From: Desulfosoma sp.
GTDB lineage: Bacteria; Desulfobacterota; Syntrophobacteria; Syntrophobacterales; DSM-9756
Assembly: GCA_037481835.1 (NCBI GenBank)
Contig: JBBFKW010000014.1
Span: forward strand, 79,657-143,656
Reading direction: 5' to 3'
Length of the DNA stretch: 64,000 nt
Positions within the stretch are counted from its first letter, which is position 1. Every line of letters begins with the position of its first letter. Under the pieces are notes generated by a model. That model was given only the letters and a program-made list of their open reading frames with translations. It had not been told where the DNA came from and did not search any database. The position numbers and the translations under genes are program-made. Below are positions 61,535-62,807 of the stretch, piece after piece.

Positions 61535-62509
61535 ATGGCCATTGACGATTTGACATGGATTCATGCGGCAAGTTATTTCGGGGCAGGGGTATCCGTTGGC
61601 TTCGGGGCCATCGGAGCGGCCTTAGGGGAAGGCTACACCGCAGGACAGGCCAGTGATATTTTGAGTTATCGGCCGCGGATGTCCGGCGAGATATTGAAGA
61701 CCATGTTGGTCGGGCAGGCCGTTGCCGAGACGGCGGGCATTTTCGCCCTTGTGGTGTCCATGCTGCTCATGTTTGGAGAGCTCAAGGGGCACCATGCTTT
61801 GGAAGCCTGGGCCTATGTGGGGGCAGGCCTCGCCGCCGGCTTGTCCGCCATCGGATCGGGGATAGGGGCCGGTTTTCCTGCGGGGGCGGCCTGTCAGGCC
61901 CTTGGACGTCAGCCCAGCGCCAGTGGGCAGATCACCCTCAACATGCTCATCGGTTCTTCCATTACTCAGACCCCGTGCATTTTCGGGTTGGTCATCGCAT
62001 TTCTCCTCATGTTCATCGATTACGGGGCGAAGCCGTATTACCCTTATTGGGCGGCGTTCCTTGGCGCGGGACTGTCCACGGGTCTTGCAGCCATCGGTCC
62101 CGGGTATGGCGGCGGATTGGTGGGGGCGGGGGCCTGCCGAAGCCTCGCCCGCAACCCGGAAGCCCAGCGCCCCATCACGACGGCCATGTTGGTGGGGATC
62201 GGCACGACGCAATCCACCGCCATCTACGGCTTTCTCATCAGCTTGATCCTGCTGTTCAAGAGTTTTCCTGAAAGCACGAGTTACGTCCCGTCCTTTGCCC
62301 TGCTCGGGGCGGGGTTGGCCATGGGGTTCGGCGGGATCGGCCCGGGAATCGGGGAGGGGATCACCGGCTACTATGCTCTGGATCAGGTGGGCCGTGTTCC
62401 TGAAGAAGCCACTTTGTTGACGCGGACCATGTTGGTCGGGCAGGCCGTGTCGGAATCGACGGGAATCTATTCGCTTGTTGTCGCCCTTTTGTTGGTGTTG
62501 AACGCTTGA
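61535..62509 (+). CDS. Four-hairpin fused c-type rotor subunit
   Basis: Four tandem c repeats with ion-site segments [36 protein letters not shown]. Confidence 0.9.
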
Positions 62510-62555
62510 TGCCATAGAACCGTCTGATTTGCTTAAAGAATGGAGGGAACACGTG

Positions 62556-62807
62556 ATGGAATTTACAGGTGCGGATCTGGTGCGTGCGGCGGCGTTGTTG
62601 GGTGCCGGAATTGCCATGGGACTGGGCGCCATCGGACCGGGCGTGGGGGAAGGCTATGCGGCCGGCAAGGCCTGTGAGGCCATCGGCCGTCGGCCGGAAG
62701 AAGCCGGGCTGCTCACCCGCACTATGCTGGTGGGCCAGGCCGTGTCCGAGTCGACCGGGATCTACTCCCTGGTTGTCGCGTTGCTGCTCATGTTTGTGGT
62801 GAAATAG
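62556..62807 (+). CDS. atpE: Fo subunit c (Na+-type motif)
   Basis: [22 protein letters not shown]. Confidence 0.95.

Follow-up and report, generated by a model that had tools for sequence, protein, structure and literature searches.

The window analysed here is a stretch of 64,000 nucleotides from a Desulfosoma sp. genome (GenBank assembly GCA_037481835.1, contig JBBFKW010000014.1, positions 79,657 to 143,656). Near its end lies a cassette of F-type ATP synthase genes in the order Z-I-a-c4-c-b'-b, in which the gene named c4 encodes a protein of 324 residues. This protein is a real, conserved fusion of four F-type subunit c hairpins. The fused subunit and the other features of the cassette are as follows.

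61535..62509, + strand: c4, fused four-hairpin subunit c, 324 residues (PF00137, TIGR01260, hairpin alignment, AlphaFold2)
62556..62807, + strand: single-hairpin subunit c, 83 residues (PF00137, 67.4 bits)
60178..60402, + strand: atpZ/atpR-like small membrane protein, first gene of the cassette (PF09527 ATPase_gene1, E = 2.7e-17, 63 bits)
60399..60842, + strand: atpI (PF03899 ATP-synt_I, E = 2.5e-08), listed from GTG 60297; the likely start, placed from the sequence, is ATG 60399, which overlaps the atpZ stop
60859..61533, + strand: alternative Fo subunit a, 224 residues (PF00119, E = 8.2e-51)
62838..63263, + strand: alternative subunit b', 141 residues (PF00430, E = 1.1e-14)
63268..63882, + strand: alternative subunit b, 204 residues from TTG, with an ATG at 63280 (PF00430; TIGR01144, 69.5 bits, cut-off 65.5)
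63924..63950, + strand: terminator-like hairpin with a T run, closing the cassette (10-pair stem, 7 G-C pairs)

The fused subunit and its cassette

In the list of open reading frames, the start ATG of c4 stands 1 nucleotide past the stop of the subunit a gene. Profile searches matched PF00137 (ATP-synt_C) to four stretches of the protein (E = 3.6e-57, 190.9 bits, cut-off 24), and TIGR01260, the NCBIfam model of F-type subunit c, likewise to four (141.8 bits, cut-off 43.95). The AlphaFold2 model, built on an alignment of 84 rows, comprises eight long helices in four hairpins, with a predicted local distance difference test score (pLDDT) of 96.0 and a predicted template-modelling score (pTM) of 0.92. 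These results bear out the initial annotation, which had described the open reading frame as four tandem c hairpins and expected four ATP-synt_C matches and eight helices. Foldseek comparison of the c4 model with solved chains returned none with four hairpins, the best query-normalised TM-score being 0.46.

Alignment of the four hairpins with the single c gave the following residues, numbered along c4.

Hairpin 1, residues 1-84: E32, E65, T66, A67, F70; helix 1 GEG, helix 2 VAETAGIF
Hairpin 2, residues 85-168: A112, Q145, T146, P147, F150; helix 1 GAG, helix 2 ITQTPCIF
Hairpin 3, residues 169-248: G193, Q226, S227, T228, Y231; helix 1 GGG, helix 2 TTQSTAIY
Hairpin 4, residues 249-324: E274, E307, S308, T309, Y312; helix 1 GEG, helix 2 VSESTGIY

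Both carboxylates are thus kept in hairpins 1 and 4, with glutamine (Gln145, Gln226) replacing the helix-2 glutamate in hairpins 2 and 3, and the motifs proposed earlier for the four hairpins were reproduced exactly. An F-type subunit c is expected to carry the essential helix-2 carboxylate in every hairpin; because this Glu is restricted to hairpins 1 and 4, c4 is best described as a c-family protein with two non-canonical repeats. The R-x-P loop facing the catalytic sector, F1, is kept in all four hairpins (YRP, RQP, RNP and RVP), and R46/P47, R125/Q126/P127 and R206/P208 are invariant or nearly so among 84 sequences.

The reading frame was confirmed on independent assemblies. Logan contigs of runs X1 and X2, possible sources of this DNA, are identical to positions 60800-63900. 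Run X4, from another sample, supplied a contig of 9637 bases that covers this stretch from end to end; it differs by 109 substitutions and represents a 96.5%-identical strain. None of its listed indels (62511, 62538 and 62807) lies within c4 or c; the variant strain thus has an intact frame, and misassembly, which the initial annotation had given as a possible refutation, is excluded.

The start of the single c is most likely ATG 62556, preceded by a GGAGGG Shine-Dalgarno sequence, rather than TTG 62529. This subunit carries the full two-carboxylate Na+ motif E32..E65-S66-T67..Y70 with V63 present, in agreement with the complete E..E-S-T..Y pattern first attributed to it, and its closest solved chains are c1 and c2/3 of Acetobacterium woodii, c of Ilyobacter tartaricus and c of Fusobacterium nucleatum. 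Its mean column identity across 62 cassettes is 88%.

The location of c4 between a and b in the atp set satisfies the gene order of an F-type c. It had been placed between atpB and atpE; the position was right, but these are not the canonical atp genes of the organism. The same genome, 99.4% complete, has a canonical atpI-a-c cluster on contig C4 and a single alpha/beta pair, in an F1 operon b'-b-delta-alpha-gamma-beta-epsilon on contig C5. The cassette a is only 32% identical to the canonical a, and the cassette b' and b are 31% and 32% identical to their counterparts in the F1 operon. On these low identities the cassette is a second, paralogous and anciently diverged Fo, complete by its gene content and lacking an F1 of its own: within the window, no F1 gene was found in the cassette or after the terminator-like hairpin up to the contig end 50 nucleotides on. 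Terminator-like sites overall were no more frequent than in shuffled sequences (6 versus 5.0), so the call at 63924..63950 rests on its own strength and place.

The canonical c, on the minus strand at 1444-1866 of locus L002 (G000:C4:64946-68134), begins with a long N-terminal extension, in which a hydrophobic, signal-like segment precedes the hairpin. Its motif is Q..IESLCIY, without Thr67, and Q..IESL[CA]IY was found in 6 of 6 carrier genomes, this one and five others.

The X1 and X2 contigs stop about 75 nucleotides past 63900, close to where the contig of the window ends, while the X4-strain contig continues for about 2.3 kb beyond; this difference suggests a repeat or strain break just downstream. 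Upstream of the cassette, the interval 57698-59954 holds an open reading frame of 182 residues on the plus strand, with a twin-arginine-like start (MTRREFLKG), and one of 581 residues on the minus strand.

Composite ion sites along the fused hairpins

The site of Na+ rings is composite: in the accessible text of PMC3692424, Glu32 and Glu65 come from one subunit and Val63 O and Ser66 from its neighbour, Tyr70 and Ser66 hold Glu65, and Thr67 holds a water. For NtpK of Enterococcus hirae, the accessible text of PMC2359735 assigns Leu61 and Thr64 to hairpin 1 and Gln110 and Glu139 to hairpin 2. Because the NtpK ligands are split in this way, hairpin i of a fused protein was taken to donate ligands to the Glu of hairpin i+1.

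This rule was examined in 201 fused proteins, which are related sequences representing 106 distinct patterns. A hairpin bearing Glu65 was preceded by a hairpin with [ST]66-[ST]67..Y70 in 108 of 121 cases, while a hairpin without Glu was preceded by such a donor in only 3 of 619. Reading the proteins in the opposite direction gave the inverse picture (6/206 versus 306/534). The last hairpin displayed S-T..Y in 200 of the 201 proteins, the remaining one being truncated; the first always had Glu and never Tyr70 (0/201); and the hairpins without Glu carried Gln in 620 of 621 cases. By these patterns the family plainly obeys the composite-site rule, with donor ligands kept where a composite Na+ site would require them.

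Applied to c4, the rule predicts one complete site between hairpins 3 and 4, where the Na+ set is full (the T225 backbone at the Val63 position, S227, T228 and Y231, with E274 and E307), and another at the junction of the preceding subunit with hairpin 1, hairpin 4 serving as the donor face for the next subunit. Between them lie two consecutive blind positions (1 to 2 and 2 to 3), at which Gln replaces Glu and the donor Thr67/Tyr70 are gone while Ser/Thr66 stays. The pattern E,Q,Q,E is common to 57 of 80 loci; 12 have a single Glu hairpin and two have three. In one record (L072, 8001-8972), placed in Myxococcota by NCBI ranks, a four-hairpin c shows the permuted order E,Q,E,Q and the S/T..Y donors have shifted with it, a natural test of the rule.

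Distribution, ancestry and partner subunits

A protein search over 5.8 billion proteins yielded 8000 candidates that were scored, among which 2259 matched at E<=1e-5 with lengths clustering near 324, 405 and 486 residues. Among the best 120 matches, 10 had four hairpins, 83 had five and 27 had six. No close relative of c4 longer than 567 residues was found in a search for longer proteins, the longer matches being only 25-30% identical. At that identity stand a 750-residue 'ATP synthase subunit c' of Candidatus Vampirococcus lugosii and V/A-type K subunits of about 900-1139 residues (P0121 and P0122-P0134), all of them very long fused proteolipids outside the c4 family.

At least 520 species-level genomes encode a relative of c4, named carriers including Desulfacinum infernum DSM 9756, Desulfosarcina variabilis, D. 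widdelii and Desulfatibacillum alkenivorans DSM 16219. An even sample of Thermodesulfobacteriota contained one in 39 of 401 genomes and 31 of 254 genera, the frames corresponding to 2, 3, 4, 5 and 6 hairpins. The cassette is widespread in this phylum, and the four-hairpin form, whose spread the initial annotation could not judge, is one step in a series running from two to six.

Gene order is highly conserved. The fused gene (cN, for N hairpins) follows a in 80 of 80 loci and is directly followed by a single c in 78, the other two reaching the contig end; b' and b come after c in 74, the rest being cut by contig ends; and an atpZ-like gene occupies the same position in 78, being not found in L037 and L052, where the cassette is near the locus start. 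F1 genes occur within 8 kb of the cassette in one locus only, L046, where the cassette with its own b'/b is followed, at about 8001-17000, by a second b'/b pair and delta-alpha-gamma-beta. Twenty further loci have the same cassette with c2 (1), c3 (10), c5 (7) or c6 (2); a single c follows cN in 19, the exception being cut by a contig end, and in 7 of them delta-alpha-gamma-beta-epsilon stands directly behind a cassette with a single b'/b pair. L046 looks like an intermediate between the free cassette and the F1-fused operons. Two loci deserve separate mention. Behind the c4 of L084, after 8978, are two tandem single-hairpin c genes (97 and 96 residues) recalling the c2/c3 pair of A. woodii. 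L071 has the c4 and c cassette on a contig of a metagenome-assembled genome labelled Nitrospinaceae, which reflects either transfer outside Thermodesulfobacteriota or a binning or labelling problem.

Comparison of c4 with two Desulfacinum orthologues gave ratios of nonsynonymous to synonymous substitution rates (dN/dS) of 0.08-0.09, 0.12-0.14, 0.04-0.05 and 0.03 for hairpins 1 to 4, values that are rough, dS being near saturation. Between hairpin 4 and the single c, 30 of 31 residues of the outer helix (helix 2) are equal while 20 of 36 codons differ synonymously. This near-identity of protein despite the synonymous changes argues for purifying selection; gene conversion between the two was rejected, the DNA being 69% identical against 30/31 amino acids. 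Selection keeps hairpin 4 and c to one common surface, which is what would be seen were the same subunit a to contact both.

A tree of 110 hairpins, of weak resolution owing to few columns and built without A. woodii c1, grouped them by position and not by protein. All 22 first hairpins formed one clade (Shimodaira-Hasegawa-like approximate likelihood ratio test, SH-aLRT, 96), 20 of 22 single c fell in one group, and the blind internal hairpins clustered together, which points to an old fused architecture.

Translation signals distinguish the two c genes. Between a and cN the median spacing is 3 nucleotides (<=15 in 79/80 loci) and the Shine-Dalgarno sequence of cN is weak (3-4 of 6 matches in 78/80 loci), whereas c lies a median of 58 nucleotides beyond cN and the Shine-Dalgarno sequence of c is near-perfect (6/6 in 62 and 5/6 in 16 of 78 loci). 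Such signals fit the synthesis of few cN, coupled to the single-copy a, and of many c.

A docking model of c4 with c reached an interaction score (ipSAE) of 0.76, the best of three controls scoring 0.00; among reference pairs, 116 of 157 solved complexes pass the mark applied, against 2 of 215 mismatched pairs. Runs agreed in at least 98% of contacts, with a partner pLDDT of at least 89, and in the model c packs against hairpin 4, placing its helix 1 and E65 next to S308/T309/Y312. Because a like complex, 4BEM, is already solved, this outcome may be memory of that structure, and it shows likeness only.

Gene counts suggest how the cassette is served. Each of the 38 other cassette-bearing genomes in the sample has at least two a genes (33 with two, five with three), yet exactly one gamma was found in 30 of 39 genomes, this one included; in one none was found, and in two the second match was split or a fragment. 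Ten genomes inspected individually agree with gene counts of one F1 and two Fo, and among the genomes examined none was found with the cassette as its only Fo. Where the cassette is fused to F1 genes, that F1 is the only F-type alpha/beta pair in 4 of 5 genomes checked; the fifth, G326, carries N- and V-type sets in addition. These counts are read most simply as one F1 being served by two different a/c sets, and in the lineage of the window each a/c set has its own b/b'.

A heteromeric rotor, its rivals and known systems

We consider it probable that c4 and the single c form a heteromeric Na+ rotor of lowered gear, of the A. woodii kind but with runs of blind positions, and that it works on an alternative Fo for which the single F1 also serves. 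The two proteins would build one ring, to which each c4 would add two working Na+ sites and two consecutive blind positions. One or a few c4 with many c would be the likeliest composition, because the translation of c4 is coupled to that of the single-copy a, while a strong ribosome-binding site precedes c. If the ring had 11 hairpins, a size borrowed from the closest solved relatives, one c4 and seven c would move 9 Na+ in each turn, and the ratio would be 3.0 Na+ per ATP rather than 3.67. The alternative Fo would dock to the only F1 of the cell, competing or alternating with the canonical Fo as a second gear. Co-assembly of a fused c bearing silenced sites with a Na+-type c, giving fewer ions per turn, was already suggested by the initial annotation and is the best-supported reading, given site conservation in 201 homologues, low dN/dS, the translation signals and the c4-c docking model; the added suggestion of a tunable ratio found no support.

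Fewer ions per ATP would raise the reversal potential. By arithmetic, delta-Gp/(nF) at 50 kJ/mol is about 141 mV for n = 3.67, about 173 mV for n = 3.0 and about 259 mV for n = 2, a ratio conceivable for relatives of the c6 type. Since a lower ratio favours Na+ export against a standing gradient and blind arcs are easier to cross when F1 drives, ATP-driven Na+ extrusion seems somewhat likelier than ATP synthesis, especially for relatives with 4-5 blind positions. Against this lean, enzymes with a V-type c and the A. woodii hybrid synthesise ATP at 87-90 mV, according to the accessible text of PMC9171764. A wider reading, which we offer tentatively and regard as rather doubtful in its full extent, is that one F1 head operates on two interchangeable membrane sectors in many Thermodesulfobacteriota, the second sector being a graded set of geared-down rotors with 1 to 5 blind positions that would act as a V-ATPase-like high-force Na+ pump or as a low-ratio synthase.

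Several points weigh against these proposals. Sharing of F1 is read from gene counts, and 6 of the 39 genomes have a second, lower-scoring, N-ATPase-like gamma, in five of them beside a third a gene in an N-ATPase-like operon. Among the Glu hairpins, 13 of 121 break the composite-site rule, and the P-values of that analysis overstate independence, the sequences being related. The canonical c lacks only Thr67, so the two Fo sectors may not differ in ion. The borrowed ring size and the roughness of the dN/dS values count here as well. Lastly, during some of every turn a blind run would bring no carboxylate to the a/c interface, which poses a problem for torque and sealing.

Rings made of c4 alone, with c in separate rings or filling gaps, seem unlikely. 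Three c4 would give 12 hairpins with threefold symmetry, 6 sites and 2 Na+ per ATP; since the last hairpin offers S-T..Y and the first E..E, junctions between two c4 would complete sites as well as those between c4 and c, and a ring of 12 could be made up from proteins of 2, 3, 4 or 6 hairpins. However, the commonest form among the best 120 search matches, with five hairpins, does not fit 12, and the arrangement leaves unaccounted for a strongly conserved c that follows cN in 78/80 and 19/20 loci (the three exceptions being cut by contig ends), as well as the contrast between a cN coupled to the single-copy a behind a weak Shine-Dalgarno sequence and a c with a near-perfect one. That the ring is built as proposed and couples H+ is also quite unlikely, although two-carboxylate c subunits occur in N-type ATPases too and the choice of ion is not readable with certainty from the motif. 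At least one N-type ATPase with such a c is reportedly H+-selective. The single c nonetheless has the full set E32, V63, E65, S66, T67 and Y70, as in the F. nucleatum ring, which binds Na+ and drives Na+-coupled ATP synthesis (accessible text of PMC3692424), and the donors S/T66, T67 and Y70 persist solely in hairpins that stand before a Glu hairpin, which a pure H+ site would not need.

The lack of F1 genes within 8 kb in 79 of 80 loci and the terminator-like site closing the cassette in the window would suit an F1-independent Fo, acting as a gated Na+/H+ conductor or another membrane rotor. We hold this to be improbable: the cassette is joined to F1 genes in 7 of 20 loci and in L046, the F1 of such operons is usually the only one of F-type in its genome, and the loop that contacts gamma and epsilon is kept in every hairpin of c4. 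Moreover, we know of no role for b and b' in the absence of F1. That the cassette is a decaying duplicate or an assembly artefact is scarcely credible. Tandem repeats are indeed prone to misassembly, and half of the c4 hairpins lack the essential carboxylate; yet independent contigs, including the 96.5%-identical strain, preserve the frame, dN/dS stays at 0.03-0.14 in every hairpin including the blind ones, hairpins cluster by position across the phylum, and Gln is retained in nearly all blind hairpins.

The rotor sets the ion/ATP ratio of a rotary ATPase, and to our knowledge no characterised F-type rotor other than that of A. woodii contains a blind position, the A. woodii rotor having one. 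With the family described here, natural rotors having runs of 1 to 5 blind positions become available in cultured, non-pathogenic bacteria; these bear on how a stator is crossed without a carboxylate, on the lowest reachable ratio and on the flip of an F-type enzyme from synthase to pump. If the proposed sharing of F1 is true, cells could alter the gearing of their ATP synthase, and perhaps its ion, by exchanging one membrane sector for the other, which would bear on the energetics of sulfate reducers and syntrophs near the thermodynamic limit. Under the wider reading given above, living bacteria would be re-enacting the step by which synthases and pumps are thought to have parted, and would provide a natural example of rotors that take long ion-free arcs through the stator.

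In the open-access full-text literature, we found no description of an F-type c with 4-6 hairpins or of a second Fo sharing one F1. The accessible text of a preprint (10.64898/2026.10.01.756066) mentions 'multi-hairpin structures' in passing and describes duplications as much rarer in F- than in A-ATPases, and the accessible portions of PMC4103992 and PMC5606693 hold nothing on Fo subunits.

Among known systems, the N-ATPase (atpDCQRBEFAG) resembles the cassette as an extra F-type sector beside the ATP synthase, with an AtpR/AtpZ-like gene (PF09527) and a two-carboxylate c, but its operon has its own alpha, beta, gamma and epsilon, whereas the cassette has no F1 genes. Assignment of the cassette to the N-ATPases was rejected on scores below cut-off for a (TIGR03306, 128.7 < 302.1) and for the single c (TIGR03322, 66.5 < 130.85); c4 exceeds the TIGR03322 cut-off only because the scores of its four repeats add up. 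In some carriers (Desulfosarcina) the genome holds an N-ATPase-like operon as well as the cassette.

Multi-hairpin proteolipids of A/V-type enzymes (E. hirae NtpK; archaeal c with 2, 3 or 13 hairpins) share with c4 fused hairpins and fewer sites than hairpins. As proposed for c4, the N-terminal hairpin of NtpK donates ligands to the Glu of the next, and the fold of c4 matches a V-type c. Unlike those of V/A-type proteolipids, the hairpins of c4 are F-type by sequence and its operon is F-type (a, b, b'); classification as a V/A-type proteolipid K was rejected, the scores being below cut-off (NF004913, 100.6 < 211; NF011483, 90.1 < 188). The Na+ c11 rings of F. nucleatum and I. tartaricus (3ZK1, 1YCE) align with the single c at E = 2e-22 with the same ligands and numbering (E/Q32, V63, E65, S66, T67, Y70), and the single c shows the two-carboxylate form of F. 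nucleatum. These rings are homomeric with one site per hairpin, in which the c4 system differs.

The closest system is the F/V hybrid of A. woodii (c1 + c2/3; 4BEM), whose c1 (4bem_J) is the best sequence and fold match of c4. Both have an F-type gene set with a carboxylate-less hairpin in a fused c encoded beside a single-hairpin Na+-type c. Both c1 (hairpin 1 AVAETSGIF, hairpin 2 AVAQTTGIY) and the c4 family display AE[ST]x..F in the first hairpin and Gln for Glu in a blind hairpin, and the last hairpin, Q[ST]T..Y in c1, follows the same logic in both. The A. woodii ring is 9:1 (accessible text of PMC9171764). Its c1 has two hairpins (V-type-like, 16-18 kDa) and one blind position, whereas c4 has four hairpins and two consecutive blind positions, with up to five blind positions in relatives, and the last hairpin of c4, unlike that of c1, keeps its own Glu pair. 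Helix 1 bears Glu in the c4 system and Gln in A. woodii, a Firmicute, while the c4 family belongs to Thermodesulfobacteriota. Unlike in A. woodii, the fused c belongs to an additional Fo that has its own a, b and b' but lacks F1, and the genome possesses a canonical a/c set as well. What appears new relative to the A. woodii kind is a series of 2-6 hairpins, runs of blind positions, the two-carboxylate motif and a second Fo apparently sharing F1.

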